Origin: a virus
Direction: 5' to 3' (one strand)
UHGV virus genome: UHGV-0144129
DNA: 39,244 nt
Shown: in pieces, positions 5,274 to 22,498 of the stretch
How positions within the stretch are numbered: position 1 is the first letter of the stretch
Layout: each line of letters starts with the position of its first letter
Program-made: the position numbers and the translations under genes
Notes under the pieces: model-generated
Told to the model about the DNA's origin: nothing
Database searches by the model: none
Seen by the model: the letters and a program-made list of their open reading frames with translations, nothing else

Positions 5274-5771
5274 TCAGTGCCACGATTTTTGCTTCTTCAG
5301 TGAATCGTATTGCTGCTCGCAGAATTCCCCTGCGATACGATACTTTTCAGCCTCAGCTGCTGTTGCGTTGTAAACTCGGTTGCTTTCTTCAAGCATGTCG
5401 GCGAGCACACCGATGACCTTGCTGGCTGGCGTGCCAGGGGGGAAAGATCCGGTATAGTGTTCGGCGAGCCGCCTGGTTTTGTCAAGCTCGGCGCGCATGC
5501 TGTCAGCAGCGGAATTAGCATACTCAGCATCAGCACGCGCCGCATCGATACGGGATTGTGCTTCACGTTCAATTTGTGTTTTCTCCTGCTCACGCTGTGA
5601 CCTTAACTTATCATCAGCCTGTTTCTGATCTTCCTTCGCCTGAGCATACCCGGCATCGTACTGGCGGCTGCCATGCACATTCCAGGCAACAACGCAGCTG
5701 GCCACCAGAGCAGCAAGCATCGACACGATAAGCAACTGTTTCCAGTATGCTTTCACGAATGCCTTGATCAT
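5274..5771 (-). CDS. Rz-like i-spanin
   Basis: N-terminal TM (LLIVSMLAALVASCVVAW) then a charged coiled coil. Last gene of the lysis cassette. ATGA overlap with the upstream gene. Confidence 0.6.
   Translation of the reverse strand: MIKAFVKAYWKQLLIVSMLAALVASCVVAWNVHGSRQYDAGYAQAKEDQKQADDKLRSQREQEKTQIEREAQSRIDAARADAEYANSAADSMRAELDKTRRLAEHYTGSFPPGTPASKVIGVLADMLEESNRVYNATAAEAEKYRIAGEFCEQQYDSLKKQKSWH
5297..5545 (-). CDS. Rz1-like o-spanin lipoprotein, embedded in the +1 frame of Rz
   Basis: Internal Met of ORF 5297-5593 gives MRRVLMLSMLIPLLTAC with lipobox LTAC, followed by a Pro-rich mature part. Lies entirely inside Rz. Confidence 0.5.
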   Translation of the reverse strand: MRRVLMLSMLIPLLTACAPSLTKPGGSPNTIPDLSPLARQPARSSVCSPTCLKKATEFTTQQQLRLKSIVSQGNSASSNTIH

Positions 5772-5992
5772 ATACTTACCTTCGGCTGAAATCGGCGAAC
5801 GTTAATTGGCTCACCATATGGCCATGACCAATTCAGCCAGGTAAATGTTTTCAGCTCGCACATCGCATCGAAAAATTCACCAGGATCGATGTCGGAATAG
5901 CTGCAAACTATTTCCAGACCACGTTCTGTTTCTTGCAAAGCAACTGTATCTGTTTCCCAGCGGGGAATGAGCAAAGAAAATAGTTTATTCAT
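5768..5992 (-). CDS. hypothetical protein, translationally coupled between endolysin and Rz
   Basis: Start ATG at 5992 overlaps the endolysin stop (ATGA); its own stop overlaps the Rz start. 74 aa, Trp-rich, no family recognised. Confidence 0.4.
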
Positions 5993-6615
5993 AAAAGCAC
6001 CTTCTTGGCCGAAAGATACCGTACACGGCGATCGTCGATGCCGTTCCGGCCACCATTGATAATCAGAGTTACACGTGCAATATCGCCGGTATACTTCATG
6101 CATCCTTTGCTGGCGAAGAACCACGCCGCGCTACGAGCCGCGTATTCGTCCTGCACCAACAGTTCAGGATTCTCCAGCAGGTCCACTTTCAGGCCGTTTC
6201 CGCAATCACGATAGTTATTCAAACCGGTAATCTGGATAAGTCCGCGGCCACGGTAATTCCAGCCATCACCAGAGGCATTGTTCCCCATGCGTTTGCTGTA
6301 CACCAGATTGGCAATCGCACGCTGGCGCTCAGGTGGCAATGGTGGCTCGCCTGCACGACGACCCAATGCGTTAGCCTGTCCCTGAGTAAGACGACCGGCA
6401 CGAACGAAGTTAGCCAGTCCGGTGACGCTGTAATTGAAATTCTCCTGCAACCTGGTGAAGCCACCAGACTCATGCCCGACCTGAGCAATAAACATTGCCT
6501 GATCTTCGGGTTTTCTGATACCAAACTCTTTCATCGCAGAAGTTATATGCGAGAACCAGCGTGCGGCCAGAGCCTCGCTAATACCAGCAGCTCGCTGGAA
6601 TTGTTTAATCTCCAT
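5989..6615 (-). CDS. endolysin, glycoside hydrolase family 19-like
   Basis: Internal Met ([11 protein letters not shown]...) preceded by [16 protein letters not shown] matches the GH19 catalytic-region signature (AQxxHETGG). Follows the holin-like genes. Confidence 0.7.
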
Positions 6616-6913
6616 GTTTAGACCTCGATGTTTTGAAAATCTGAACAACGTTACCGCGTGTTTTAATAACCGCGGCAAGCATGACAGCGTTGATAATGAC
6701 CTCAGATAAATCCACAGCCATTGGCGTACGTAACCAGATTGCATAGGCGACACGAACAGGAATACTGGCCGCAGCAACAATAAGGAAATAAGCAAGCCAC
6801 CCTCCCCATCTTCGATGTTGAGAGCCGTTACGCCGGAATGTGACAACGCGAATTGCTATGCCAGTACAAATAATTGCATTGGTGATAAGCAAAACAAGCT
6901 CATTAGTTACCAT
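6605..6913 (-). CDS. holin-like small membrane protein
   Basis: 102 aa with 2-3 predicted TM helices and a basic C-terminus. Overlaps the endolysin start by 11 nt. Confidence 0.45.
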
Positions 6914-7313
6914 CGCCTTTTCTCCCAGGAATTAACTGGCGTGGATTATCAGAACGGTGATAGAGCCATATACCAATTCGCACTGCGACAATTGCTGACA
7001 CGAATGCGCCAGCAGAGAAAACAATCCCTTTCTCGAAAGAGTCCTGCGTGATGGTAGGTATCATGCTGGCTATTCCGATAAGAATTGATGTTGTTGGTTT
7101 GTAAAAGAGAAGACCACAAAGAAAGCTGAGTATCGACAAGAGTACACGACGACGAACAGGATACTCTACAGCAGAGGTAACAAATATTACCGCACCAGCC
7201 AGAGCACCGAGAGCCACCTCTGGCGGAACGCCGTAGACGACAGAGGCCAGCGCACCCAAGCTTAACCCTTGATTCAGTGAATCCGCCGTAACCGTGCCAT
7301 TCATGGTAACCAC
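6903..7313 (-). CDS. holin/antiholin-like membrane protein
   Basis: 136 aa with several hydrophobic helices, immediately downstream of the tail fibre gene and upstream of the endolysin. Confidence 0.4.
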   Translation of the reverse strand: MVTMNGTVTADSLNQGLSLGALASVVYGVPPEVALGALAGAVIFVTSAVEYPVRRRVLLSILSFLCGLLFYKPTTSILIGIASMIPTITQDSFEKGIVFSAGAFVSAIVAVRIGIWLYHRSDNPRQLIPGRKGDGN

Positions 7314-7401: not shown

Positions 7402-10053
7402 TTATTTTGATTCCAATAGTTCGAGTCGCTCTTCAATACGATCGCATCGGCGGCGCTGATATGCAGCCTCAAGCCAAGCGCACTGGTCAGGCCGTATGCC
7501 CCATGAACTACCCGCTTTTTTAACCAGCCTCTGTTCTCCGGTGTCATATTCGACGGTGACCAACTCACCAGACGCATCGGTAATCTCTTTAGTCGCGATT
7601 ACCGGCTCAAAAATATCGTCCCACTCGTCATAGCAAAGAAGGCCAAATCTGGTTCCATCAATTCCGTGCGCCAGGAATACATCTCTTACCTGCTGAGCCA
7701 TGACGCCAAAATGCCATCTGGCACCATCGCCCTTCATGGATATAGCGTCGAGCCATCGATACGCCACAACAGAAATATCGCCCCAGGCATCAAGAATGCT
7801 GTCTCTATCAGAAGAAAGCATTTCACTTAAATCTGATATTGCCTCGGGATTGGTTTTCAGCGTGGCATCTGATGAAACGGTTGGGGCATTTGCAAAGTAG
7901 GCGTCTTTAATACGAAACGATGCCTGACCAAAATTATAGGTATTGTCAGCAAACGGGCGAAGACCTGTATTATAAAACCGCCAGCGTATGGTTCCTCCCA
8001 ATGCTGTCGGGTCGCTGTTGCATGCAATATCCACCGTGGTGGCAGACCTAAACACAGAAGAACTACCGCCCAATACCAAGCTATTTGCGCTAGCTGTAGC
8101 CTGCTGGTCAAGGACCAATATTTTCTGAGAGTTTGTAGTTGCACCGGCATATGATGATGCAGTGATGCGGTTTAATTGGTTTGTATCAGGATCTGCGTTT
8201 TGCTGAATGGTTAAGTTAGATGCCCACTGTGCCGGTCGCTGGCGCACAAATACAAAGTCACCAGAAGGATTAGTTGCAACCAAATAACTAATGCCACTAT
8301 CAGATGAATAATAGTTGACTATAAAAGTCTGATTATTCGCATTCAGTATTTCAACATATGTGCTGGAAGGGATTGCCACGCCAGATATATCAGCAATGCT
8401 GACAGTCCCTGTGTAAAAATTAAATGCCTTCTGACTCATCTCCTGCATATAGCGAAGAATTTCAGTCATGTTAGTGAACAACGTACCATCTACAGGGTTA
8501 ACAATCCCCTTCGCACTACGGGGATATACCCCAATGCTCGCGTGATCGATATCAAATCCGCGGTAAAGCCTGGATGCAGGTGTAAAATCGATAGCATCTT
8601 TATCAGTGGAGAAATCTTCGAAAATAACCAAACCTGAATTGTAAGGTTCAGAGCCAGTTCTTTCCTGATGAATGTAAAGTGAATAAATGGATTTTCCATC
8701 CTGAGAAACACAAACGCCTTCATTTTCTATGCGAGTGACGTTCAATCCTGCGGCTTTCATTAAATCCATCATGGCCTGAGGATGAAGCATTGATTCAGTT
8801 CGCTTTGTACCGTCAGGGTTAAAAACTTTGCTGCCCTGATATTCGTTATATCCTGCGCTTCCTGCCCCATCAGCTATGAAGCCGCCATAGCCGCAGACAA
8901 AGTAGTTATCACCTACCGCAATACCCTGACGCTTGTTGAAATAAGGCGCATAAGGTGAGGTGCTTTTAGTTACATACCCAACATCATGTAACGGCAGCGT
9001 TATAGTTGACAGGCGATTGAAACCACTGTCGAACACTGCAAGTACAGTTCTTGTGATTTTCTGTCCTACTTCTGGCGCATTCTGCTCAACGAGCCATATA
9101 CCTCTTCTGTAGCTGAACTGGTTGAATAATCCAACATCATGGTTTTGTACAAGAGGCAGATTGCTTCCGTATAATGCCCCCTCCATATTAAATTCACGCA
9201 GTATTCCGTTTGTGTGACCAACAAACATTTTTTTTGGGCCATAGTCTGACGTAACCACGATTCCTTCAGCAGCGAAGCCTGGGCCGCCAGCCTGAACATA
9301 GAAATAACCTTGATAAATACCAGATATGTTAAATACTGCGACGACATTATTCGTCTGTTTAGGCTCAAATGGATAAGTGATGTATATCAAATCTTCGCTA
9401 ACGCAGAATCCTTGAGGATACATATAAGTTGCTGACGGGTTAGCAGCCATAATCGCATCATATTCAGGAAAAAGAAGCGGCATCGTAGCTACAATCTTTC
9501 TTTGGTGATTTGTAAAAATATCGTTTTTAGCGCTGTTAGGTGTAGGCGTTACACCTCCAGTAAAAAGATCATCAACATAACCTTTATTGACAGCATCGTT
9601 TCTGTCAGTGGCATTTGCTAGATTTGATATCTTATTATTTTTTGCATCATAATAGTTAGCCAGAATGCTTGGTTTTATAAGTGCTAACCTCATCCATGAA
9701 AAACACTTTTGAATAAGCATTGTCAGTTTATCGAACGCGTCTTCATGTACCTCAGCGAAGAACTTACCCTGATTACGCAAATCAGTATCCTGCGTAACCG
9801 GGAGCTCTCGTGATATAGAAATATGATAACCGTTAGCCAACGCCTTCGACAGAATTACATTACCGCCATTATATCCTCCAGCATTGGTTACTGTGTAGTC
9901 AGTATCCAGAACCAATTCTGTTACGTTCCCGTTCAGGTCAGACACCTGAACAACCAGGTCGGATTTTTTGAAAATACGGAAGGTATACGGAAATGATGTC
10001 GTAGCTCCGTTACCAGTGTATTCGTTGTGGTCAACTTCGGTTGAGACCGTCAT
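7402..10053 (-). CDS. tail fibre / tailspike with T7 gp17-like N-terminal anchor and C-terminal intramolecular chaperone (S74-type) domain
   Basis: N-terminus (YTGNGATTSFPYTFRIF...LDTDYTV) follows the T7 gp17 tail-attachment pattern. C-terminus (WHFGVMAQQVRDVF...GIDGTRFGLL) matches the auto-cleaving chaperone domain of endosialidases and L-shaped fibres. Position is after the internal virion genes, as in T7. Confidence 0.7.
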   Translation of the reverse strand: MTVSTEVDHNEYTGNGATTSFPYTFRIFKKSDLVVQVSDLNGNVTELVLDTDYTVTNAGGYNGGNVILSKALANGYHISISRELPVTQDTDLRNQGKFFAEVHEDAFDKLTMLIQKCFSWMRLALIKPSILANYYDAKNNKISNLANATDRNDAVNKGYVDDLFTGGVTPTPNSAKNDIFTNHQRKIVATMPLLFPEYDAIMAANPSATYMYPQGFCVSEDLIYITYPFEPKQTNNVVAVFNISGIYQGYFYVQAGGPGFAAEGIVVTSDYGPKKMFVGHTNGILREFNMEGALYGSNLPLVQNHDVGLFNQFSYRRGIWLVEQNAPEVGQKITRTVLAVFDSGFNRLSTITLPLHDVGYVTKSTSPYAPYFNKRQGIAVGDNYFVCGYGGFIADGAGSAGYNEYQGSKVFNPDGTKRTESMLHPQAMMDLMKAAGLNVTRIENEGVCVSQDGKSIYSLYIHQERTGSEPYNSGLVIFEDFSTDKDAIDFTPASRLYRGFDIDHASIGVYPRSAKGIVNPVDGTLFTNMTEILRYMQEMSQKAFNFYTGTVSIADISGVAIPSSTYVEILNANNQTFIVNYYSSDSGISYLVATNPSGDFVFVRQRPAQWASNLTIQQNADPDTNQLNRITASSYAGATTNSQKILVLDQQATASANSLVLGGSSSVFRSATTVDIACNSDPTALGGTIRWRFYNTGLRPFADNTYNFGQASFRIKDAYFANAPTVSSDATLKTNPEAISDLSEMLSSDRDSILDAWGDISVVAYRWLDAISMKGDGARWHFGVMAQQVRDVFLAHGIDGTRFGLLCYDEWDDIFEPVIATKEITDASGELVTVEYDTGEQRLVKKAGSSWGIRPDQCAWLEAAYQRRRCDRIEERLELLESK

Positions 10054-10156: not shown

Positions 10157-10173
10157 ATTACCTTTCAGGTGAT
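10157..10173. promoter_or_regulatory. operator-like imperfect palindrome ATTACCT-TTC-AGGTGAT (family A)
   Basis: Member of a recurring TTACCT-N3-AGGTAA family. Lies about 50 bp upstream of the LexA box. Confidence 0.4.
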
Positions 10174-10248: not shown

Positions 10249-10506
10249 ATGCAGCAGTATCACTATCCACTGGAAGACGGATTTACCGAAAGGATTCACA
10301 CGCCGGGAGGCGTCAGGTCACTGGTGGAGGGATCGCACTTGATGAAATTACTCCGGGATCTCGATAAGGATGGATTTAATGTCGATGGCCCACTTGCCGA
10401 ACTGACTGCACTGATTAACTACGTCACCAGCTCACAGATGTCTATGCGGGATCTGCAAACACATCTCGACTATTGTGCCGAACAATTACGAAAACAAACC
10501 CGGTAA
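10249..10506 (+). CDS. SOS-controlled mini-antirepressor (stand-alone copy of the Ant C-terminal domain)
   Basis: GGAG 8 nt upstream of ATG. The 85 aa product aligns over its whole length with the C-terminal about 80 aa of both Ant proteins (PLxxGxxxxIHxPxGV...DGxxVxGxxAELTxxxxYxxxxxxxxRDxQTHxxY). Confidence 0.55.
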   Translation: MQQYHYPLEDGFTERIHTPGGVRSLVEGSHLMKLLRDLDKDGFNVDGPLAELTALINYVTSSQMSMRDLQTHLDYCAEQLRKQTR

Positions 10507-10528
10507 ATTTAAAGGCCGCAAGAGCGGC

Positions 10529-11257
10529 CTATCGTTTCGCTTTGTGCTCATCCCAGCACGTTTTGCACCATGCCATTAAGCCGTCCGCATTTTGATTATT
10601 AGGGTAAAAGCTGGTTCGTTTTCTGCGGACATTACAAATTGGGCACCACTTCATATGGCGTGTATTCTTTGGGCCATCGAGACACCTTGCACACCATTTA
10701 GTCAATCCATCTGGATTTTTTGACGATTTCCTGAATTTTTCATATGGAAGGTTTATTCTGCATCGCAAGCACTGCTTGCTACCACTTGAAACTCTGTTAG
10801 CTGATTCTTCTTTTGGCGGCGATACAGAAGGTATTCTTGCTGGCTCTGATATTGCCTGAGGTGCTTTTTTAGATGACTGAGACGATATGTCATCACCAGG
10901 GAATCTTCCATGATATGCCGGACGCGTTGACACTCCAGGTGGAATCTCAGCTGTAAACGGCTTTGGCTGAATCAGTTGCCTCTCTTTTGCTAACTCCTGC
11001 TGTTTATAATATGTCTGGATTACCGCACTATCATAAGCAGGAGGTGCGGAAATATTAGGCGCATTACCTCCAGTTTTTTGAAACTGAGTAGAGGTGTGTT
11101 CTATCACCTGTGTACGATTAATCGTTATCTCCCCATCTTCGGTCTTTATCGTTTTGTTATGATTAACGACCGTACGATCAGAGATCTTAGTCTTGTTCTG
11201 GTTGATAACGTAAATAATCACCGCAACCACACCAACAACTATCCAGAAAACTTCCAT
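10529..11257 (-). CDS. membrane-anchored protein with tandem zinc-ribbon motifs
   Basis: SD GAGG before ATG. N-terminal TM helix, Pro/Ser-rich linker, then two repeats of a P/ADGLxxWCxxC unit with extra CxxC pairs. Transcribed immediately before the tail fibre gene. Confidence 0.5.
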   Translation of the reverse strand: MEVFWIVVGVVAVIIYVINQNKTKISDRTVVNHNKTIKTEDGEITINRTQVIEHTSTQFQKTGGNAPNISAPPAYDSAVIQTYYKQQELAKERQLIQPKPFTAEIPPGVSTRPAYHGRFPGDDISSQSSKKAPQAISEPARIPSVSPPKEESANRVSSGSKQCLRCRINLPYEKFRKSSKNPDGLTKWCARCLDGPKNTRHMKWCPICNVRRKRTSFYPNNQNADGLMAWCKTCWDEHKAKR

Positions 11258-11276
11258 TGCTTTTCCTCACAATAAC

Positions 11277-11293
11277 ATTACCTTAAAGGTAAT
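11277..11293. promoter_or_regulatory. operator-like perfect palindrome ATTACCT-TAA-AGGTAAT (family A), with an adjacent half-site at 11301-11311
   Basis: Perfect 7-3-7 inverted repeat 20 bp upstream of the ATG of the minus-strand gene ending at 11257. A TTTCAGGTGAT half-site follows 8 bp later. Confidence 0.45.
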
Positions 11294-11656
11294 ATCTTGC
11301 TTTCAGGTGATCAAGCGTTAAACGTAATCAACCAAATACGGTTGATTTTAATATTTCTTCGCGTTTATCATTACCTTTGCGGTAAATTTACATTGCACTC
11401 CTCTTGTGCCATAGTAATCGGGCACTGGCAAAATCCAGTGCCGGGATTGGTCTCCCGGATTACTAAGTGGCGCATACCACGCCAGACGTGGTTTTTTTAT
11501 GCGTATAGCACAGTCATGCCAGAATTATGGTGGGCTGAATGGGGGTCCGAAAGGACGCCGGTACCACTTAGGCCGGTAAGACCAACTCCGTTCAGTTCAC
11601 CACCATCTGATTGGTCTCAGCGGTGGTGATGTAATTCGCTAAGTGGAGACGCCATC

Positions 11657-12313
11657 ATGAACGCTCAACTCATCCCCGTATTCAACGGCACTATATCTAA
11701 CGAAACAGCCCTACTTTGTAATGCCCGCGATCTGCACGCTTTTTTAGGTGTTAAAAAGGTGTTTGCAGCATGGATTACAAATCGCATATCAGAATACGAA
11801 TTCATTGAAAATCAAGACTATATTTTGCTTTCCAATTTGGGAAAGCAAACATCTGGTAGAGGCGGCCACAACCGCAAAGAGTACCACCTCACCCTTGATA
11901 CAGCCAAAGAGCTGGCGATGGTCGAGCGTAACGAAAAAGGTCGCCAGGTGCGACGCTACTTCATTGAATGCGAGAAACGTTTAAGACAACAAGAAACAAA
12001 AGTGGAGAAGGTCTTGTCAGGCTTCATGCCCGCCATTATGGAGGCGATCAAGCTGGAAGACAAAAAAGAATACAGCGCCCCACTGAAGCCCGGCTACCGT
12101 AGCCTGATTCATTCGCCGTCTGGTGTTCTCGGCCTGACGGAGAACTCACTGCTGATGAATTTGCTGAACCAGTTACAGGAAGACGGGCACGATGTATCGG
12201 GCGCGGCGGCGGAGCTGACCACCATGTTCTGCTACATCGTTGGTGTGAGCAAATGCCTGCGTGATATCCAGACGCACGCGGAGTACATCAACGACAAGGC
12301 AGGATTCTTCTGA
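11657..12313 (+). CDS. antirepressor-like protein (second Ant; Bro-N/ORF6N-like N-domain plus shared Ant C-domain)
   Basis: N-terminal region ([22 protein letters not shown]...) resembles phage antirepressor / Bro N-terminal domains. The C-terminal 80 aa are near-identical to the C-terminus of the Ant at 13323-14267. Confidence 0.55.
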
Positions 12314-12542: not shown

Positions 12543-13178
12543 ATGCCACAACAACTGCTGAATCCGGCAAAGGTAACTGAGGTTTTCGCTCATCTGAACG
12601 AAACTCCAGACAACCGCGCCCTGTATTCAGAGTTAGTGAACGGCAACGATGTCACATCTGATGTCAAAGGCGTTTCTCTGGCTCCTGGATACCGCGTTGT
12701 CCGTGTAGACGATCGTAAGAAAGGCGAGATTCCACAGGCGCACTTTGAACTGTCATTGATAAATGACCTCACCGAAGAGGTAGTGTATTACAATCGTGTC
12801 ATTATCCAGCCTGACAGCTATCTTAACTGCCGTCCTGTCACGCAGATATTGGTATGGAGAACCCAGAAGCCTAAGCATCGTGCTGTGCTTCATGATTTCG
12901 CCGGCATCATCTTCATGAACTACCTCTTGGAACGGTACGATATCATCGTGTCAGATCGCAACCAGACTCATGAAGGCATGTCGTTCTGGCAGGCTCGCAT
13001 GTATGACGCACTGGAACTTGGCCTCCACCTCTATGGTTACGACATGATGACATGCGAGCTGATAGAGATGAATAACGAGGAAGAGCTTGAGAAAGGTGAA
13101 ACCTGGTTGTGGGGTGATGCGGAAAACTTCCAAAACAGATTGGCCATAATTTCAAAGCATAAGCTGCCAATAAAATAG
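12543..13178 (+). CDS. hypothetical protein (cargo between the inverted repeats)
   Basis: 211 aa ORF with normal codon usage and its own terminator. No motif recognised. Confidence 0.5.
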   Translation: MPQQLLNPAKVTEVFAHLNETPDNRALYSELVNGNDVTSDVKGVSLAPGYRVVRVDDRKKGEIPQAHFELSLINDLTEEVVYYNRVIIQPDSYLNCRPVTQILVWRTQKPKHRAVLHDFAGIIFMNYLLERYDIIVSDRNQTHEGMSFWQARMYDALELGLHLYGYDMMTCELIEMNNEEELEKGETWLWGDAENFQNRLAIISKHKLPIK

Positions 13179-13299: not shown

Positions 13300-13555
13300 C
13301 ACATCCCTGTGCCGCCGTTCTGTCAGAAGAACCCTGCCTTGTCGTTGATGTACTCCGCGTGGGTCTGGATATCACGCAGGCACTTGCTCACACCGACGAT
13401 GTAGCAGAACATGGTGGTCAGCTCCGCCGCCGCGCCCGATACATCGTGCCCGTCGTCCTGTAACTGGTTAAGCAGATTCATCAGCAGTGAGTTCTCCGTC
13501 AGGCCGAGAACACCCGACGGCGAATGAATCAGACTGCGGTAGCCGGGCTTCAGCG
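13300..13555. repeat. right arm of the ~255 bp inverted repeat (3' end of ant plus 3' UTR)
   Basis: See the left arm at 12083-12337. Confidence 0.7.
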
Positions 13556-14267
13556 GATAACCATAACATTTTGTCTGTGTTTTAATTGCCTCACGAAGCG
13601 CATCTAACATCTTGACTGCCACTTCATCATTCTCTGATGCAGATCCAGCAGGGAGATGCTCCCCTTCAAGCGGAACCCGAGCAACAAGAGACAACGCTTC
13701 GGCGAATTGATCTTCATCAATTTCTTTGTACGAACAGCCAAAATGAGATTTCAGTGACGACCACATGGTGATCATCGCCTTAGCCTGTTTTTCTTTTGGC
13801 AGAGACTGACCGCGACTCATGACGAGTTGTTTAATGGCTTCCTGCTGTTCAGTGGTTATTTTACCCGGCAACGCCTTTTTAGCTTTGCGTGGGTTAACCA
13901 CATGGCCTTTAGTCCAGTACTCGTAGAGCACATCGTCACACTCTTCCTGATACTGGATTACCTTGTCGCGGATTTCAGGGCGGACTTTGTTAGGGCTGAT
14001 GGTTTGCAACCAGCCAGCAAGTTTGCGAAGTGCCAAACAAATAATCTCACGGCGCTGTTCATCCCCAGGAAGCTGCATTGTGATTTTCACAATGCAGGTT
14101 TTAAACCGCTGCTTCATTTTCGTAAACTGTGAAGCCCAATCCATACCCATGCCTTCAACGATAGGTTTCATTGGGGTGTACGGTTCTCCGTTGTGATTGA
14201 CAACATAAAGTTCTGCGCCGTGGAATGGCACGTTGATAGTAGATACCGCTGTTGCTATACTCGTCAT
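13323..14267 (-). CDS. ant: antirepressor Ant (AntA-type N-domain plus shared C-domain)
   Basis: N-terminus (INVPFHGAELYVVNHNGEPYTPMKPIVEGMGMDW) is AntA-like. Directly downstream of the arc-like gene, as in P22 immI. Confidence 0.7.
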   Translation of the reverse strand: MTSIATAVSTINVPFHGAELYVVNHNGEPYTPMKPIVEGMGMDWASQFTKMKQRFKTCIVKITMQLPGDEQRREIICLALRKLAGWLQTISPNKVRPEIRDKVIQYQEECDDVLYEYWTKGHVVNPRKAKKALPGKITTEQQEAIKQLVMSRGQSLPKEKQAKAMITMWSSLKSHFGCSYKEIDEDQFAEALSLVARVPLEGEHLPAGSASENDEVAVKMLDALREAIKTQTKCYGYPLKPGYRSLIHSPSGVLGLTENSLLMNLLNQLQDDGHDVSGAAAELTTMFCYIVGVSKCLRDIQTHAEYINDKAGFF

Positions 14268-14339
14268 GTCGTTAATTCCTATACGTAGTTTTACGATACT
14301 GAAGCCCTGACGGTCTGGCCACCGTTGGGCTTCGCTGTT

Positions 14340-14507
14340 TTATGCCACGCTATTCTTCTCACCAGTGAGTCCATACACTTTCCTCAGCTGATAGATAATC
14401 TCTGTATTGAACTTTCGGCATTCTTTTTCGCCATTTCTTTCAATAGCTAACTTCACATCGTCCGGAAAACGAACTCGTCGTTGACACATCTCTTTTGCTT
14501 TTTGCAT
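14340..14507 (-). CDS. Arc-like ribbon-helix-helix repressor
   Basis: Start is the internal ATG (MQKAKEM...) with SD AAGGAG 7 nt upstream. The RRVRFPDDVKLAIERNGEK...NTEIIYQLRK region has an RHH beta-strand plus two helices. Sits between the mnt-like gene and ant. Confidence 0.55.
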   Translation of the reverse strand: MQKAKEMCQRRVRFPDDVKLAIERNGEKECRKFNTEIIYQLRKVYGLTGEKNSVA

Positions 14508-14521
14508 TTCATATCTCCTTA

Positions 14522-14536
14522 GCCCCACCGTGGGGC
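14522..14536. promoter_or_regulatory. operator-like palindrome GCCCCAC-C-GTGGGGC at the ant promoter
   Basis: Perfect 7-1-7 palindrome just upstream of the arc SD. Its CCACNGTGG core recalls the P22 mnt operator (from memory). Confidence 0.4.
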
Positions 14537-14542
14537 AAAACA

Positions 14543-14571
14543 ATTGTCACACCGTGCGTCATTGATGTCAA
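14543..14571 (-). promoter_or_regulatory. candidate sigma70 promoter for arc-ant (P_ant-like)
   Basis: Minus strand: perfect -35 TTGACA (complement of 14566-14571), 17-bp spacer, -10 GACAAT (complement of 14543-14548). The palindrome above lies at the predicted start site. Confidence 0.4.
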
Positions 14572-14627
14572 GCACACGGTGAGGCATACTTCAATCATTG
14601 CAAGTAACTCAATATTTGGTGAAGAAC

Positions 14628-15059
14628 ATGAGCAGAGAAGATCCACAACTAAGGATCAGACTTCCCGTTGAAGTAAAAGAAAAAATAGAAATTTCTGCAA
14701 AAGCCAATAAGCGCTCAATGAACGCTGAAATAGTACAACGTCTTGACACCAGCTTTCTGAAAGATATTCATGAAGATGACGTAATTTCTGCTTATGAAGC
14801 AAAAATTATTGCAAACAATGCACGGCATGAAATATCAAATATTATTTTCAAAAGAACTTTTAATGAAATCAATAAGAAAATAACACTTGGACATACAAGT
14901 TTTTATATAAACCTTAATGACCTTGAACTGGAATCACTTGCAGATAATGATTACCAGATCATCTTTGAAAAAACATTTAATAAGCTCAATGAACTAGGTT
15001 ACATCATCTGTGAAAACTCATGGGATGCAGATGGTTTTGGAATTGAAATACCTGAATAG
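14628..15059 (+). CDS. mnt: Mnt-like ribbon-helix-helix repressor with a long AT-rich C-terminal extension
   Basis: MSREDPQLRIRLPVEVKEKIEISAKANKRSMNAEIVQRLDTSF closely parallels the N-terminus of P22 Mnt (sequence recalled from memory). Divergent from arc-ant. About 60 extra C-terminal residues compared with P22 Mnt. Confidence 0.6.
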   Translation: MSREDPQLRIRLPVEVKEKIEISAKANKRSMNAEIVQRLDTSFLKDIHEDDVISAYEAKIIANNARHEISNIIFKRTFNEINKKITLGHTSFYINLNDLELESLADNDYQIIFEKTFNKLNELGYIICENSWDADGFGIEIPE

Positions 15060-15149
15060 GAAGAACAAAAGGCGTGTACATATTACACGTCTTTAATACA
15101 ATTGAAAAACGCCACATTACTGATGTATGTTACAACAAGGAGCGATATT

Positions 15150-15713
15150 TTGAAAACCATATCTATATTAAAGGTTGCATTAGGCGTCGCTATTATTTTG
15201 ACTCTCTCAATATTGTTTTATTTTTACCACAAAAAAACTGCTATTGCTCTTGATGGTCACGCGGCAAACTCATTTTTCTCAGAGTACATAGTGCCGCTAT
15301 CAGGAAGCGGTATAACAAATAAATATACTGACTATGACATCAAATATGGAATTGATGATGGGGAGACTATTGCATTACATGTAATCATTAAAAACCTAAT
15401 GACAGTAAATAAAAATACAGACTTCAACGATAAAAATACAATACATCACAACAACAGCAAAACATTAATTTCTTATAGTAGCAACATCTATACGGATAAA
15501 TACCTAAAATACATCTCAGAAGATACAATAAAAGCAACCAGCGAAAAGTTAAAAAACATATATTGTGCATCCGGCAGTTTTCACAAATTATCGCCGCAAG
15601 AGCGTTTATTCTACGAAGCAAGAAAACAACGTAAGTCAATAATATTACATTATTATGCTGATTCAGGGGAGTCACTCATATTTAATATTGGGGTTTCCCC
15701 TGAATCATGCTAA
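15150..15713 (+). CDS. AT-rich membrane-anchored moron protein (candidate superinfection-exclusion or defence factor)
   Basis: Best start is TTG at 15150 with SD AAGGAG 7 nt upstream (the ORF track starts it at 15102). N-terminal TM helix (ISILKVALGVAIILTLSILFYF), then an N/K/Y/I-rich domain. Opposite strand to the flanking virion genes. Confidence 0.45.
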   Translation: MKTISILKVALGVAIILTLSILFYFYHKKTAIALDGHAANSFFSEYIVPLSGSGITNKYTDYDIKYGIDDGETIALHVIIKNLMTVNKNTDFNDKNTIHHNNSKTLISYSSNIYTDKYLKYISEDTIKATSEKLKNIYCASGSFHKLSPQERLFYEARKQRKSIILHYYADSGESLIFNIGVSPESC

Positions 15714-15724
15714 AGGCGTTTAAC

Positions 15725-18700
15725 TCACCGCATCACCGGATCCACCTGGTTTATTAGTGGCGCAATCCAGAACAGGTTATTGCCTGGTATCAGGGTTCGG
15801 ACATTATGCACAATACGATCACCGGCATCACCATTCAACACTCCTGCGGTCACATCAATGATGCTATCCGCAAGACCAAATGACGGTCCGAATAGAGATC
15901 CTACGAATCCACGACTGGCATACCTAGACTGTGTGCCAGTGCCAAATAAAGCCCCCAGCCCAACAGCACCACCAGTAGCCTTTTCAGCCATGTTGTTATA
16001 TTCCATCAATGGCCCAAGAATACCGGATCTATCTATACCCTCAAGCACCAGCTTCTCTGGTGACCAGTCAACATTTTTCCCTTTCGATGCTTCTTTTAGC
16101 GCATAGACCAGTGAGCCAAGAGCAATCTGAAATGCAGTGCCATAATAAAATTGCGCAGTTCCTTCCTGTAACCCACCAAGTAGCGCACGGTTGTATGAAG
16201 CCGTTGTGAATGATTTAAACTGAAATATCGTTCGCCCCATTGGAGTACTCGCCCATAAAGGTGTGTCACCAATACCGGGGGTGATGATAGTGTTATTAAC
16301 GTCTTTCAGAACCGCTGACTGGAATACTCCGGCAACGTACTGATCGTCCCATTTATCAAAGTTACCAATGTGCCATCCATCAATTACCTCACCATGTTTC
16401 TCGAACTCACTGCGAATACGCGCAGCCATATTGTCGTTGATACCGAGTTTTGCCATGCGACGTGCAGAAAACGCACCAGACAAAATACCGTCTGACGTGA
16501 GCATTCCGTTCATGGATTTGTTTATGTCATTAAATCGATCCATGAGTGTCAGCTTGCCGAAGGCATCAGTAATTCGCTCCATTCCTGCTTCGACTGCTGT
16601 TGTCCTGGAAGAACTGTCAACAAGATCACCAATTGCACGAGAACGTGAATGTAGTACAGCTTCCAATCCAATCCCCATCTTCAACATCTCTTCTTTGCTG
16701 GCCTTAAATGCCGGTGATTGGGATATCTGAGAAGCATAGCCTTTCATGGTGTTACGGAAACCATTAACCATAACCCCTCTGGCCAAATCTGGAATAGCTG
16801 ATACTGTCATTCCACCGAGTTTGGTCGTGAAGTTCACATCCCGCAGAAAAGCGCCAGCACGAACAAAAAACGAAGACGGATCATCAGGCATACCATATGT
16901 ACCAACAAGACGATCGCGTAATGCTGTTATGTCTCTGAGATCATTTGCTCTTGATTTTGAAAGTCTGGACTGTTCTTTCCGTAATTCCTTTTCGTACTTT
17001 CGCATTAATGAATCGAGTTTACCCTGAGGAACAACTTCACCATTGCTCTCATAACGTGCTTTCAGATTTGCCACACTTTCGTCATATTTCGCCTTTATTT
17101 TTTTAGGCACTTCCCGTAACAGACTGTCATATTCGTCCTCAATTAATTGCAGACGCTCAGTCATAGTTCGTTTGCCAAATGTTCTCGTCAGCTCAATTTC
17201 TGCTGCCGCTTCACGGATATGACGTTGCAGCACGTAATTCACATCACTTTCAAGATAATCCCTGATAAGACTATCAGGAACATTTAATGTTCTTTCTTTC
17301 GTACTACCTGCGGCTTTTACAGAAAATACGCTGACAAAATCCTGTGGAACCTTAGCACCAGTAATTTTATTAATTACGATATCCGCTGCAATTTCAGCAT
17401 CCTCAGGATCCAGTGTTTTATTTCCTCTCGACCACCAGTCAACCAAAATACGTCGAAATTTATCGCGTTCACTGATTATTTTTCCAACTTTATATATGCG
17501 TGGGAAATAGCTTGCCTGGCCTAATGCTTTCAGTTCTTCATCTGGCGGCAATAAACCAAGCTTTTGCATTTCAACTTTCACCCGATTTAATACAGTTCGC
17601 ATCGCCTGCGCCGTTTCCTGAACAACAGGATTAGCATGCACATCACCGCTTCGCATAGCATTCCCAACCTGCTGACGAAATGAATCAAAACTCATGTCAC
17701 CACCATCAGCTTTATACTTTGCGTATGCCTGTTTATTTCCGACAACAACAGCAGCTTCTTCACGCTGCCATCCACGTGTACGGGTTTCTACAGCTACCGG
17801 TGTTTCAATCCCCCTTTCATTTCCTTTAAGGGTGAAATTATTTTCGGCTAACTCCAGCGTTGTTTTTCGCACCGTCTTGGACGGAGACTCCATTAACCTT
17901 GTCAAAGGAGTAAGATAGCTCCCTGCTTTCCATGCAGCCTTTCCAACCCACCCACCGGAAACAGGGGTTAAATCATCCAGAGTCGCTGTATCAATTTTCA
18001 TAGCACCAACACTACCACCATCGGAAAGCGAAGCGGCAGCCCTGTCAGTCGCTGATGTAATGCTCATATTATCAAGAGCATCAGCAACCTCACGTGTGGC
18101 TGCAGCCCGGACGGATGGCGAAAGCGCAACACCAGCACTGGCAAACACGCCGCTCATCATCGCACCCGCTGCAACGTGAGCGGCACTTTCACCCCATGAG
18201 CGTGTTATTTGCTGATTATTCAGTACAACCTCGCTTAATGCTGTACCGGCAGCACCAATCGCAATCTGTGAGCCAATACGCGCCAGTGCCCCTCCTTGAG
18301 CACCGGGAATAAACATTGACGCAACAGTAACCGGATCCATTCCCGCAGCAATACTGGCAAGGGTTCCAACTACGCCAGCATCAGACAATAAACGTCTGTC
18401 TTCATTTTCATCATCTATCTGCTGCTTAATCCACGCCGTTTCCTCTGGCGATCGGGAATCTGCAAATTTCGCCCCCCAGTATTCATAACCGTGCAACTCA
18501 TTTTTATCAGCATATGGGTTATAACCCTCGACCGGTTCAAACTGTCTGGCTGGGCGGAAAAAACCAGACAGAATATTGTTCTGTCGCATTGCAGCCCCCC
18601 ATACGGAAGGCTCAGGTGGCAATGGCTCAGGATTAGCCCCTTCCGGAAGGGCAACATCAAACCCAGTTTGTTCCGGCAAAACATTACCTGACGGGATCAG

Positions 18701-18739
18701 TCCGTTATTAAGATCTTCAGCTTGTGCATAAACTGGCAT
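15725..18739 (-). CDS. internal virion / ejection protein (T7 gp15/gp16-like by position)
   Basis: 1004 aa ORF, the last of the large genes between tail tubular B and the tail fibre. Assigned by synteny and size. Confidence 0.5.
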   Translation of the reverse strand: MPVYAQAEDLNNGLIPSGNVLPEQTGFDVALPEGANPEPLPPEPSVWGAAMRQNNILSGFFRPARQFEPVEGYNPYADKNELHGYEYWGAKFADSRSPEETAWIKQQIDDENEDRRLLSDAGVVGTLASIAAGMDPVTVASMFIPGAQGGALARIGSQIAIGAAGTALSEVVLNNQQITRSWGESAAHVAAGAMMSGVFASAGVALSPSVRAAATREVADALDNMSITSATDRAAASLSDGGSVGAMKIDTATLDDLTPVSGGWVGKAAWKAGSYLTPLTRLMESPSKTVRKTTLELAENNFTLKGNERGIETPVAVETRTRGWQREEAAVVVGNKQAYAKYKADGGDMSFDSFRQQVGNAMRSGDVHANPVVQETAQAMRTVLNRVKVEMQKLGLLPPDEELKALGQASYFPRIYKVGKIISERDKFRRILVDWWSRGNKTLDPEDAEIAADIVINKITGAKVPQDFVSVFSVKAAGSTKERTLNVPDSLIRDYLESDVNYVLQRHIREAAAEIELTRTFGKRTMTERLQLIEDEYDSLLREVPKKIKAKYDESVANLKARYESNGEVVPQGKLDSLMRKYEKELRKEQSRLSKSRANDLRDITALRDRLVGTYGMPDDPSSFFVRAGAFLRDVNFTTKLGGMTVSAIPDLARGVMVNGFRNTMKGYASQISQSPAFKASKEEMLKMGIGLEAVLHSRSRAIGDLVDSSSRTTAVEAGMERITDAFGKLTLMDRFNDINKSMNGMLTSDGILSGAFSARRMAKLGINDNMAARIRSEFEKHGEVIDGWHIGNFDKWDDQYVAGVFQSAVLKDVNNTIITPGIGDTPLWASTPMGRTIFQFKSFTTASYNRALLGGLQEGTAQFYYGTAFQIALGSLVYALKEASKGKNVDWSPEKLVLEGIDRSGILGPLMEYNNMAEKATGGAVGLGALFGTGTQSRYASRGFVGSLFGPSFGLADSIIDVTAGVLNGDAGDRIVHNVRTLIPGNNLFWIAPLINQVDPVMR

Positions 18740-21456
18740 TATTTAGATCCCCACGAAAAGTAATCTTTAAATTTGTCCATACGTTCGTTATGCAGGCGCT
18801 GATACTGCTCATCCAGAGCGCGATGCTTGTCTTTGAAGTTTCGTATAGCCTGTCCACGCATAATTTCTTCCTGCTCGTACTGCTCCCGTTCCTGCTGCAT
18901 TTTCTTATAGGGTTCCCAATCTTCTAGTGATGGTTCCCAACGCATAGGACGCCCATGTTTGTTATAAAACGGCTGGACCCGATCGATGCCATTTTCATCC
19001 TTAGTTCTTACCATAATGGCGTAATCACCATTACGGGGTGTTAACACGTCAGGGGTTATGAATAATTCTCCATTAATACGACTCTCAGGGGTTTTTGTCT
19101 CAACTACAGGAGCATTACCTGACGTGATCCCAAGCAACGTCGGGCTGGTTGTTATAATCTCTTTGCGCTCACCGTACATCAGCCGTTCTTTTTCAGCTTT
19201 CCACTGCGCCGCCTGCCAGCCTGACGGCCCATATTGATAAAGCGCCTCCGGTGCATATTTCATAAACTGCGCTTCTCCGTTAACCTCGCTGATACTCCAG
19301 GTGCGGGCTATCTGCTGGTTGGTCATTTGCTTCGCTACGTCAGCGTTACCACCAGCAACGCGGTAGTTAATGTCATACAGCGTCTGATAGTCATTACGGA
19401 ATCTAGCTGCTTCCGGCGTCTGGTCATCCGCAGACGGATCCCAACGGAACCACTGCGCCATATTGCTGACAGCAGAATTCATCGCCTTGCTGCGATCATT
19501 TTTGTACTCTTTTGAACTCTGCGTTGATGCCAATTGAGCTTTAAGAGCATCGGTCTGGTTGTACGTAAGGTTCTGCGCCTGCTCGATAGCCGCATCAGCA
19601 GACATGCCAGAATCAGTTAGTTGCTTAACAGTCAGATAAAAACCCTGCATATCCTTCGGCATATTTCCAATAGATGCATTGTCTGTTTCATATAACCGAC
19701 TAAACAGTTCCGCCGCATTTTTAACCACTTCCTGATTGCTGGATCGGGATACTGCTGAAAGCTGCGTGATGACCTGCGAAGGCATTATGCCAGTCTGAGC
19801 CACAAGCCGAACAACCCCATCATGAGTGGAGGCATCATTAATACGAAAGTTCTGCGCCATTTCTGTGTAATCAGCAGCTTTCTGCATTGACTTGTTGCTT
19901 GGGTCTAATTTTTCACCTATTGTCAGCGCCTCATTGAATCTGCGTGAATCCCGTTGCGCCTGAATTGCTTCATTTGATCTCTGAAGCAATGCAGACAATT
20001 TTCCGTAAGCATCGAGTTTTAACGCATAGTGAGGATCGTTAACCTCAGGCTTCACTTTCTGCATTTCTTCTTGCTGCTGAGAAGGAGGCAAATACTGAAT
20101 TGCCTGGAATATTCTCGCGTTATCAATCGCTATATCCAGTTGATTGATTATTTTATCTGCGTTTTTTCCATACCCCCTGATGATGGTCTCCTGAGCCGGT
20201 ATATAATCTGGAACCTCACCGTTATATAGCTGGGCCATGGTGTTATTAATAGCTGGCTCAAGCTGTTCTAATATTAACTTCCTTTGCTTTTCTATCTGAC
20301 TATTAGCAAGGTTATCTATTTGATAAATAGTCAGCGGATCCATTCCAGTTTTATTTTTTCTATATCGGGAAAGCCACCCTTGTGTTTCTGATGGAAGATT
20401 TCGGATAAATTCTTCTTCTGATATTTCACCTTTACGTGGATCACCGACTTTAGCGATCAGTTTATCCACGTTACCCATCCCCCAGTTATATGCTGCTCCG
20501 GTCAATATTTCGGAACCGTACTTACCATACAGTTGATTTACATAGTCACTGGCGAGCATTTCATGCTGTTGTTCGTCCGTAGGGTTGTATTCAACGCCAC
20601 GCTTGGCCGCCAGTTCTTTTCCTGTGCCCGGCATTAACTGGTATTTCCCCTGGGCTCTCTCTCCAGAAGATGTTATCGGTCCCTCAAGAAGACTACCATC
20701 AGGATTAAAATGTCGATCACCTGATTCAACAAGGCGTATGGCACGCATGTCCATGCCTCCAGAATCATTTTTCTGAAACAGACCATTTAGCCATCCTTCT
20801 GGATTGGCAGCGGCATAATTCTTCGCCCGCATTTCTGTGGCACTGCGATCATCACTTTCTATTTCTTCCAGAATGCGTTCTTGTGACCATCCCCTGGCAG
20901 CTCCATATCTGGCAATGGCTACCATTCTGGAATTTCTGGCTAAAGTGGCAGTTTGCGGGTCATTCCAAGCATCCGCTTCATTTTGTATCCATAATTTTCT
21001 CGTTGCCTGATATTGCTCATCTTCATAGGCATTTGTCTGCCCTATCTCATGTCTGAGAACTCCAGTACTGAACTGAATTTTCTGTGTTCTGGCTTGTTGC
21101 AAAAACATATTTCTTGCAGCTTCATCAGTCAATGAAGCAGCTATTTCTTCCACATCCTGATCAAATCCAGATATGTACTCTTGCCCCTTACCAATCGCAT
21201 TTTTGCCTTGTTGTGCATAAAAACCGGTTTGAGGGTTATAAAGACGTTCATTGCTGCGCTGATTAAGCTGAAGGATGGCATCCTGAGACAATGCAACATT
21301 CGCTTTCTGCCTGGCTTCACCATATGCCACCGCATACTGATCTGCGACATTCGCCAGCACTTGGCCTGCTTGAGGAACATCGAAGGTCTGAAAACCACCA
21401 GTTTGCACACCACGACTTTGCACCTGACGTCCGGATGTAGTAGGAACAACAGGCAT
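18739..21456 (-). CDS. internal virion protein with lytic transglycosylase (SLT) domain
   Basis: SLT motifs LVESG ... GKYQLMPGTG ... AAYNWGMGNV (ES / GLMQ / AYNAG pattern). 905 aa. Position matches T7 core proteins. Confidence 0.65.
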   Translation of the reverse strand: MPVVPTTSGRQVQSRGVQTGGFQTFDVPQAGQVLANVADQYAVAYGEARQKANVALSQDAILQLNQRSNERLYNPQTGFYAQQGKNAIGKGQEYISGFDQDVEEIAASLTDEAARNMFLQQARTQKIQFSTGVLRHEIGQTNAYEDEQYQATRKLWIQNEADAWNDPQTATLARNSRMVAIARYGAARGWSQERILEEIESDDRSATEMRAKNYAAANPEGWLNGLFQKNDSGGMDMRAIRLVESGDRHFNPDGSLLEGPITSSGERAQGKYQLMPGTGKELAAKRGVEYNPTDEQQHEMLASDYVNQLYGKYGSEILTGAAYNWGMGNVDKLIAKVGDPRKGEISEEEFIRNLPSETQGWLSRYRKNKTGMDPLTIYQIDNLANSQIEKQRKLILEQLEPAINNTMAQLYNGEVPDYIPAQETIIRGYGKNADKIINQLDIAIDNARIFQAIQYLPPSQQQEEMQKVKPEVNDPHYALKLDAYGKLSALLQRSNEAIQAQRDSRRFNEALTIGEKLDPSNKSMQKAADYTEMAQNFRINDASTHDGVVRLVAQTGIMPSQVITQLSAVSRSSNQEVVKNAAELFSRLYETDNASIGNMPKDMQGFYLTVKQLTDSGMSADAAIEQAQNLTYNQTDALKAQLASTQSSKEYKNDRSKAMNSAVSNMAQWFRWDPSADDQTPEAARFRNDYQTLYDINYRVAGGNADVAKQMTNQQIARTWSISEVNGEAQFMKYAPEALYQYGPSGWQAAQWKAEKERLMYGERKEIITTSPTLLGITSGNAPVVETKTPESRINGELFITPDVLTPRNGDYAIMVRTKDENGIDRVQPFYNKHGRPMRWEPSLEDWEPYKKMQQEREQYEQEEIMRGQAIRNFKDKHRALDEQYQRLHNERMDKFKDYFSWGSK

Positions 21457-22034
21457 CAGTAACCTCCTATTTTGAATCGGGAGTCAGAATTCATAAAGCC
21501 TGAGTTAGATAACATTGGCGTTCCACCACCAGATGCACTTCCTTTAGAGAATGGGCTCCACGTTCCTCCGCTCATCTGGTATGCACCGTATGCTTTTAGT
21601 GGTGCCGTTAACAAAGTGCTGGTCATCGATGATTTAGCAGCCGACTGAGCAGCAGCCCCCTGTGCCTGAGCATTCATTCCCTGAACCTGATACCCATATG
21701 CCTCACGCTGAGCATTATTCACTGTCGTTAACGCATCAAGAGTGCCGAACTGAGCATTATCCGCAAAAACGTCAAGAGCTGTTCCGCTACTTAATTCCGC
21801 ACCGGTAGCCCCCATAGTAGCCGCCGCAGTGCCTGAGCGTTGACGCATTTCACGACGACGCTGATCCGCTTCAATATTCCCACGATTGATTGAATCCTGT
21901 GCCTGAGCTTCAGCAATTTCAGTATTCCGATCTGCTATGGCTGACTGGTATTTTGCCTGCTTGCTCTGGCTGTACATTGACGCTGCTGTGGATGCCACTG
22001 TGACGGCAACCAAAGCGATGGCTGGGTTACACAT
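21456..22034 (-). CDS. internal virion protein (gp14-like by position)
   Basis: 192 aa, Ala/Gln/Gly-rich with an N-terminal hydrophobic segment. Synteny only. Confidence 0.4.
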   Translation of the reverse strand: MCNPAIALVAVTVASTAASMYSQSKQAKYQSAIADRNTEIAEAQAQDSINRGNIEADQRRREMRQRSGTAAATMGATGAELSSGTALDVFADNAQFGTLDALTTVNNAQREAYGYQVQGMNAQAQGAAAQSAAKSSMTSTLLTAPLKAYGAYQMSGGTWSPFSKGSASGGGTPMLSNSGFMNSDSRFKIGGY

Positions 22035-22498
22035 TATTTTCTCTCCATGTGAAATCTGTGGAAATTAAGACCAAGAGCACCATAAGGCGCGGCTTCTTCA
22101 AGCCTGAATCCAAGCCAGTGCAGCCATGCTTTGGCAACATGGTTTCGCTCGTCGACGTAGTTTTCCAGGCGCGGATAAACTGCCAGCATCTGCTGCAATA
22201 CAGGGCGGCAGTGGCGAAGAAATGTCTTCTGATATTTTTCAATACGGCTGGTTCCTACCAGCCAGGGCGTACCATTGCCACCGATCATTGACGCCGGAGA
22301 TACGCCAAACATGGTTACCAGTTCTCCGTTCGCAAATCCTGACCAGGCCATAGTCGCAGTGCGAAGACCAACACGCAGCGCATCTTCGGTAGTCATCAGC
22401 GATACCGCATACAGTTCGTCAATATCAGCCTGACGAACATCCGGCAAAATCATCTGAAGATGCTCTTCGGTAGCGGGAACAATTCGAACATCGATCAT
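22034..22498 (-). CDS. virion assembly / internal protein (gp13-like by position)
   Basis: 154 aa ORF between the gp12-like and gp14-like genes. Synteny only. Confidence 0.35.
   Translation of the reverse strand: MIDVRIVPATEEHLQMILPDVRQADIDELYAVSLMTTEDALRVGLRTATMAWSGFANGELVTMFGVSPASMIGGNGTPWLVGTSRIEKYQKTFLRHCRPVLQQMLAVYPRLENYVDERNHVAKAWLHWLGFRLEEAAPYGALGLNFHRFHMERK

Follow-up and report, generated by a model that had tools for sequence, protein, structure and literature searches.

The superinfection-exclusion gene sieA of phage P22 lies between gene 16 and gene 9 (PMC10883804), and the slot downstream of the repressor gene cI is a recognised hotspot of prophage defence genes, e.g. rexAB and bstA (PMC8585504; see also PMC12724215). 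Here we describe a gene whose relatives are found in both of these positions. The DNA analysed (the window, 39,244 nucleotides) is the virus genome UHGV-0144129, which belongs to a temperate podophage of Escherichia coli resembling epsilon15 and phiV10 (Uetakevirus). The gene, at 10529..11257 on the minus strand, encodes a membrane-anchored tandem zinc-ribbon protein of 242 amino acids (PHROG 6762). Its surroundings are a composite immI-like block of antirepressor genes, bordered on one side by the genes for ejection proteins and on the other by the tailspike gene. [quoted passage not shown]

The gene is a conserved, uncharacterised accessory gene of temperate phages. Its open reading frame (ORF) runs from an ATG, with the Shine-Dalgarno sequence GAGGA 6 nt before it (11264-11268, minus strand), to a stop codon at 10529-10531. 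The surrounding region is 94–98% identical to phages TL-2011b and phiv142-3. TL-2011b has the 242-amino-acid ORF intact though RefSeq calls no coding sequence there, and the idea that a 1089-bp misc_feature of that genome represents a longer pseudogene was rejected on the strength of this intact frame. The E. coli clade of IMG/VR has 52 copies, which are likewise all intact. The gene is under purifying selection, strong on the ribbons: the ratio of nonsynonymous to synonymous substitution rates (dN/dS) is ∼0.07 over the zinc-ribbon part of the E. coli-clade copies, whereas the Pro/Ser linker (residues 94-158) evolves nearly neutrally. Among 5426 complete E. coli genomes, 129 (2.4%) carry the gene, in every case on the chromosome and annotated as a hypothetical protein, and a tblastn search of plasmids with the protein gave no match.

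The genomic position of the relatives carries most of the functional argument. Podophage contexts were read from ∼30 diverged IMG/VR and genome loci. In most of them the gene sits in a variable block next to the last ejection-protein gene, ahead of the tailspike or terminase, and is usually convergent on that ejection-protein gene. The same slot recurs on several backbones of podophages, among them those of Serratia T7-like prophages and of Yersinia phage YeP5. In at least eight distant lineages a homologue instead lies 15–55 bp downstream of a cI gene, on the same strand, where cI encodes helix-turn-helix (HTH) and S24 domains; examples are Aeromonas phage phiARM81mr, genomes of Acinetobacter, Marinobacterium and Neptunomonas, and further IMG/VR lineages. 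Three more lineages have a homologue abutting the 3′ end of cI convergently. In one lineage, of Marinobacterium-type prophages, the operon consists of cI, the zinc-ribbon gene and a gene for an SNase and Excalibur nuclease (8654-9307 in locus L094, 6657-7310 in locus L150), which overlaps the zinc-ribbon gene by 34 nt and whose product is probably extracytoplasmic. In the window itself the gene is not next to cI; it belongs to the immI-like block and stands under an immunity operator. The slot of sieA and the one after cI are independent of each other, and both point to exclusion or defence. An earlier note on this DNA had suggested a regulatory or membrane-signalling role. A purely regulatory role is possible, and a link to the regulatory circuit is supported by an immunity operator over the −10 element (see below), but we favour exclusion or defence because this is the usual function of accessory genes in both slots.

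The predicted architecture agrees with the N-terminal helix, the Pro/Ser-rich linker and the duplicated unit with further CxxC pairs that the earlier note had described. Structure was modelled with AlphaFold2 from a 61-sequence alignment (an earlier model used a shallower alignment), and conservation was read from alignments of 31, 51 and 61 members. Residues 3-20 (11198..11251, minus strand, as are all segments below) are strongly hydrophobic and form a predicted transmembrane (TM) helix, with a predicted local distance difference test (pLDDT) score of ∼90, and are predicted to act as a signal-anchor with N-out/C-in orientation. The helix is preceded by an acidic ME without any basic residue and followed by NQNKTK, from which, by the positive-inside rule, we infer that the large C-terminal part is cytoplasmic. 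Such a location also suits the eight cysteines predicted to bind zinc. Only ∼2 residues are predicted to lie outside the membrane, on the periplasmic side; the protein therefore has no sensing domain, and the membrane-signalling role is not supported as suggested. Next to the membrane, residues 22-59 (11081..11194) are predicted as a long, conserved two-stranded beta-hairpin of 18+18 residues (pLDDT 78–93). Since a lone hairpin of this size is unlikely to be stable by itself, it is probably an element of oligomerisation or partner binding, acting by strand addition. A further helix is predicted with moderate confidence at residues 77-93 (10979..11029), and is followed by the disordered linker (residues 94-158; 10784..10978), which contains 11 Pro and 11 Ser in 65 residues and varies in length and sequence between homologues.

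The C-terminal part consists of two zinc ribbons, residues 159-197 (10667..10783; C163, C166, C189 and C192) and residues 198-242 (10532..10666; C205, C208, C231 and C234), each predicted as beta-beta-beta-beta-alpha with pLDDT 93–97. The four CxxC pairs begin at C163, C189, C205 and C231. Duplication of the Cys4 unit is real: the two units align with a score of 69, against 22.9 ± 4.9 and a maximum of 46 in 1000 shuffles. Seven of the eight cysteines never vary across 51–61 diverse homologues, and C208, the remaining one, shows conservation of at least 90%; W188, W230 and D183-G184 are also invariant, and a DG motif is present in both ribbons (D183 and D225). Each ribbon has a net charge of +7 and the pair has a net charge of +14 and a pI of 9.9, which is compatible with nucleic-acid binding without being proof of it. 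The family shares a common plan, in which ‘ME’ is followed by a hydrophobic stretch of ∼17 residues, N-(K/R)-(T/S), a conserved stretch rich in Thr, Ile and Arg, a Pro-rich spacer that varies, and the two ribbons.

That no family could be recognised, as the earlier note had it, was true of Pfam, NCBIfam and PADLOC, where no significant family was found, but not of PHROGs: PHROG 6762, whose annotated function is unknown, matches end to end (residues 1-242 against profile positions 1-242 of 242, E 5.7e-150). The only Pfam match was to Stc1 (PF12898), with 21.1 bits (E 4.7e-4) over two stretches, below the gathering threshold of 24.8. Relatives with the same zinc unit score above that threshold (P0091, 39.2 bits; P0122, 29.7; P0181, 25.0). 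The protein has tandem Cys4 units with four CxxC pairs, as expected of Stc1, and the tandem pattern CxxC-x(22)-CxxC is common to both. Stc1 is a eukaryotic adaptor between RNAi and chromatin, and a functional parallel with the phage protein is not implied. NCBIfam gave noise-level matches only. Foldseek comparison of the shallower model with the PDB returned nothing below E 1.9, and a profile search of PDB sequences returned PacI as its sole match (E 0.13). Against viral structure models Foldseek returned 29 matches with E<1e-3, the majority to HNH endonucleases, to EndoVII and to proteins labelled ‘Stc1 domain’, and in PHROGs the matched regions are N-terminal modules in the EndoVII, HNH, primase and Lar-like families. 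The predicted ribbons have a structural Cys4 zinc site with the fold of HNH/EndoVII (His-Me finger) nucleases. By this resemblance their ancestors may have been zinc modules, DNA-binding or structural, in nucleases of the HNH/EndoVII type.

An active nuclease was considered and rejected, as catalytic residues are not conserved. In alignments of 31–61 members no His or Asn is conserved family-wide, H201 being conserved among close relatives only, and no Asp beyond D183 and D225 is invariant. There is no nuclease core either, as the protein ends directly after ribbon 2, and together these observations leave no HNH/His-Me active site evident. PacI, Hpy99I, T4 EndoVII-like and phage HNH enzymes possess a nuclease domain, whereas here the ribbons are fused to a membrane anchor instead. 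Lar-like restriction alleviation (PHROG 5558) was also set aside, the match being confined to a ribbon (residues 201-241 against positions 7-47 of 130). A word-indexed search identified 33 homologues in Enterobacterales, and an exhaustive profile search 1734 proteins with the zinc unit. The full domain order is found in ∼60 representatives at 50% identity across Gammaproteobacteria. Many other proteins are soluble, with up to 10–14 tandem copies of the unit, and elsewhere the unit is fused to superfamily 1 (SF1) helicases, HEAT repeats or a J-domain. One homologue, P0181, bears the precomputed Pfam accession PF27269.1.

An anchor, a hairpin, a tether and basic zinc modules suggest that the protein acts at the inner membrane face, its target being either DNA or the ejection conduit. 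In the mechanism we propose, the N-terminal anchor would insert in the inner membrane and leave almost nothing in the periplasm, the hairpin just under the membrane would probably mediate oligomerisation, and the flexible linker of ∼65 residues would carry the two basic Cys4 ribbons. Tethered in this way at the membrane face, the ribbons would attach to nucleic acid, or to the ejection conduit at its cytoplasmic end, and incoming foreign DNA would thereby be blocked or trapped, resulting in superinfection exclusion or defence. A more specific version, which we consider doubtful, is a single-polypeptide exclusion or abortive defence system, in which the catalytically dead, nuclease-derived ribbons would sense foreign DNA as it enters or replicates and either trap it where it enters or trigger an oligomer of TM helix and hairpin to breach the membrane. 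The protein would then be a one-protein functional analogue of RexA/RexB, placed under control of the immunity repressor.

The same architecture could serve a takeover of the host at its membrane, either as a division inhibitor like P1 Icd, lambda Kil and DicB, or as a single-chain abortive-infection sensor-effector whose ribbons sense DNA and whose TM-hairpin oligomer damages the membrane. We regard this as quite unlikely. P1 icd, kil and dicB are prophage division inhibitors under repressor control, which suits the idea, as do the ZipA-like layout of the protein (N-out anchor, charged segment, P-rich linker and C-terminal globular domain), the long hairpin beside the TM helix, suggestive of oligomerisation, and a cI-downstream position that mirrors rexAB. 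One member of the family is even called ‘ZipA’, but this is an automatic JGI label, and homology to ZipA was rejected: the domain by which ZipA binds FtsZ has no relation to the C-terminal domain found here, and neither this protein nor the homologue so labelled matches the ZipA Pfam family, the matches being to Stc1 and zinc ribbons only. Toxicity is not evidenced, and stable carriage in 129 E. coli genomes together with co-transcription with cI in many prophages is hard to fit with a constitutive block of division.

The gene is carried as a discrete cassette. In phiv142-3 an 858-bp segment (10507..11364), comprising terminator, ORF and promoter/operator, is replaced by 25 bp, with flanks that are 97–99% identical between the two phages, and the gene is missing from phiV10 as well as from phiv142-3. 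The cassette does not differ from its flanks in GC content. Its terminator, a GC-rich hairpin AGGCCGCTCTTGCGGCCT followed by a T-run, starts from the stop codon (10513..10530) and is shared tail-to-tail with the neighbouring gp19-like ORF. In relatives from Enterobacter, Citrobacter, Salmonella and Superficieibacter the orientation of the gene is reversed, and upstream of it there is a strong terminator and a TTGACC-17-TACCTT promoter with ATTACCTTATGGGTAAT over the −10. Since promoter and operator are conserved along with the reversed gene, the unit moves as a whole. We regard the gene as an accessory (‘moron’-type) gene tied to the immunity circuit, neither structural nor essential.

This bears directly on a role as virion component or tail-fibre assembly chaperone, which we find hardly credible. 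Its support is limited to proximity to, and shared orientation with, the tailspike gene (7402-10053) in the E. coli clade, and even the adjacency described in the earlier note is not exact, as an 85-amino-acid ORF on the opposite strand (10249-10506, plus strand) intervenes. The phages without the gene, phiV10 and phiv142-3, have homologous tailspike N-termini. The gene has its own promoter and operator and is flanked by terminators, its product has a stable membrane anchor, in most relatives it is on the strand opposite to the structural genes and far from the tailspike, and in distant phages it is cI-adjacent; in rejecting a virion component, the earlier note was thus right. A lysis regulator or antiholin was also considered and rejected: lysis genes form a cassette at a different place (5274-7313), the strong hydrophobicity of the TM helix is unlike that of signal-arrest-release (SAR) proteins, and homologues are cI-adjacent.

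The operator that the earlier note had seen upstream of the ATG is a perfect 17-bp palindrome, ATTACCTTAAAGGTAAT, at 11277..11293, 19 nt from the start codon. It overlaps the −10 element of a predicted sigma-70 promoter on the minus strand (11286..11314), with TTGATC at 11309-11314, a 17-nt spacer and TACCTT at 11286-11291, which is absent from the list of a generic promoter scan. The motif belongs to an immunity (CI/Cro-type) family and occurs 12 times in the window against 1.33 expected; none of 100 shuffles reached 12. In TL-2011b and phiv142-3 it flanks the repressor gene, with two sites between this gene and the leftward operon, one strong and two weaker sites in the repressor-cro intergenic region, and more sites before terS and the early genes. 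Lambda OL/OR and the scattered C1 operators of P1 are precedents for such arrangements. From this comparison we conclude that the motif is probably the operator of the immunity repressor, and its scattered occurrence suggests a P1-like global repressor regulon. Copies of ATTACC-N5-GGTAAT are found at 10157, 11277, 11370, 12386, 12487, 30765, 33955, 33973, 38294 and 38356 of the window. Every gene of the immI block is preceded by one, two stand a short way upstream of terS, and the early region has copies as well. A second palindrome, with 8-bp arms (AATCAACC-N6-GGTTGATT), lies at 11326-11347, just upstream of the −35 and inside the cassette, and may act as a terminator or as the site of a second regulator; in non-E. 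coli relatives its place is taken by TGTGACATGTCACA. The repressor gene of TL-2011b (L088, 5306-5890) encodes HTH domains only and no S24 peptidase domain, so that induction is expected to occur via several antirepressors and not by RecA-mediated cleavage. An operator over the −10 predicts a gene that is repressed in the stable lysogen and expressed early after infection or induction. The main tension in the data is between this predicted repression by CI in the window and co-transcription with cI elsewhere, the common phase being early infection or establishment.

These regulatory features leave room for a protein that modulates the lysis-lysogeny decision, sequestering or stabilising a regulator at the membrane. 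Its target might be the repressor itself, one of the antirepressors, or, as with lambda CIII, a membrane protease such as FtsH. It would then be made early together with the antirepressors, under CI repression, or together with cI. The gene is embedded in a composite immI (arc-sar-ant and isrK-C4-ant), its promoter is divergent from that of Ant2 with paired operators 93 bp apart, and it shares the immunity operator. The cI linkage in other lineages fits too, and in one of these, L095, where the gene is convergent on cI, the region upstream of the homologue shares the 11-mer TAAATCTTAGA with its own cI-cro region. Moreover, the TL-2011b repressor being without S24, the switch depends on accessory proteins, and establishment of lysogeny is the sole expression phase common to both regulatory layouts. 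Nevertheless we consider this role somewhat unlikely: the gene is dispensable, as close functional phages are without it, the protein has no similarity to known regulators, a membrane anchor and nuclease-type zinc modules are foreign to known antirepressors, and no partner gene is consistently linked.

Early, CI-repressed expression as predicted in the window would also suit a membrane anchor for the DNA of the phage itself, which would tether phage genomes as they replicate or enter and so organise replication or packaging in the manner of phi29 p16.7. In the latter a TM helix at the N-terminus is followed by a segment for oligomerisation and, at the C-terminus, by a module that binds nucleic acid, and the domain logic of the protein described here is the same. 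The gene is, however, an indel missing from close relatives, the phages that carry it differ in replication and morphology types, and co-transcription with cI in lysogens would be without purpose for replication. An anchor of this kind is accordingly very unlikely.

Several observations weigh against exclusion or defence as the function. A classical prophage exclusion gene is expressed in the lysogen, and the predicted silence of this gene in the stable lysogen is unlike both such genes and the homologues that are co-transcribed with cI. The sequence is not similar to that of any known exclusion protein, SieA, Imm and RexB included, and PADLOC-DB 2.0 gave no family at E<=1. The putative DNA binding is deduced from homology and charge only, and the fusions to HEAT repeats and a J-domain indicate that the zinc unit could bind protein. 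Nothing relevant was found in the literature on the family itself, on phage Stc1, on prophage proteins that combine zinc ribbon and transmembrane segment, or on PF27269.

The block in which the gene lies combines antirepressor modules of two types. The internal-virion/ejection proteins are encoded at 15725-24969 (minus strand), and the last of their genes is adjoined by a PHROG 8033 gene (15102-15713). Then follow two Arc-like genes, one Arc/ParG-like (14598-15059) and one on the minus strand (14340-14543), and Ant1 (13323-14267, minus strand); between ant1 and the Arc-like gene lies the sar RNA, the antisense RNA of P22 immI (14269-14336, plus strand; Rfam 45.2 bits). A PHROG 1349 gene (12543-13178) separates Ant1 from the Ant2 antirepressor (11657-12313). 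Ant2 is preceded by the Hfq-binding small RNA isrK (11422-11498, plus strand; 67.7 bits) and a P1/P7-type C4 antisense RNA (11523-11607, plus strand; 61.2 bits), which lie in the 400-bp ‘non-coding’ gap upstream of the zinc-ribbon gene and together form the leader of Ant2. A plus-strand ‘ORF’ at 11297-11629 was rejected as a gene, being an artefact that covers these two RNAs. P22-type arc-sar-ant and P1/Gifsy-type isrK-C4-ant modules are thus both present in one phage. The 85-amino-acid ORF between the zinc-ribbon gene and the tailspike is epsilon15 gp19-like (PHROG 450) and is a stand-alone copy of the C-terminal domain common to both Ant proteins of the window. A low-GC island at 14600-15700 (0.31–0.36, compared to ∼0.45 in the flanks), containing the Arc/ParG-like and PHROG 8033 genes, is probably a recent acquisition. 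Outside the block, a tRNA gene was found at 31103-31176 (plus strand; 73.3 bits); in the related phage phiv142-3 a tRNA-Arg(tct) is annotated between the blocks of head genes and terminase.

If the protein does exclude or abort incoming phages, it represents a widespread, undescribed family of defence or exclusion proteins that is absent from current defence databases, with an unusual logic in which DNA-binding modules borrowed from nucleases are tethered to the membrane. It would also provide a second example, after P22 SieA, of exclusion genes beside podophage ejection-protein genes. Should it instead modulate the switch, it would be a new membrane-bound player in the lysis-lysogeny control of antirepressor-driven phages. 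The contrast between co-transcription with cI and predicted repression through an immunity operator offers a tractable case of phages rewiring the timing of an accessory function.

Compared to known systems, the protein shares its layout with some and its location with others. Phi29 p16.7 and E. coli ZipA have, as here, an N-terminal anchor, a spacer and a C-terminal binding domain near the cytoplasmic membrane face, and ZipA also has a Pro-rich flexible linker, but the C-terminal domains of both are unrelated to the ribbons and there is no homology. RexA, RexB and BstA likewise have no homology to the zinc-ribbon protein, yet distant homologues occupy the same slot as rexAB in lambda and bstA in BTP1, 15–55 bp after cI. 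P22 SieA has 3–4 TM helices, an FxRYPxEAxxFNK motif and no zinc ribbons (PMC10883804), whereas the protein described here has one TM helix and no such motif, and a search of PHROGs gave it no SieA-like match. SieA is expressed from the prophage, while here an immunity operator overlaps the −10. What the two have in common is that both are accessory inner-membrane proteins, present in some relatives only, with genes that lie in immI, flanked by the last of the ejection-protein genes and the tailspike gene of a temperate podophage (PMC10883804).

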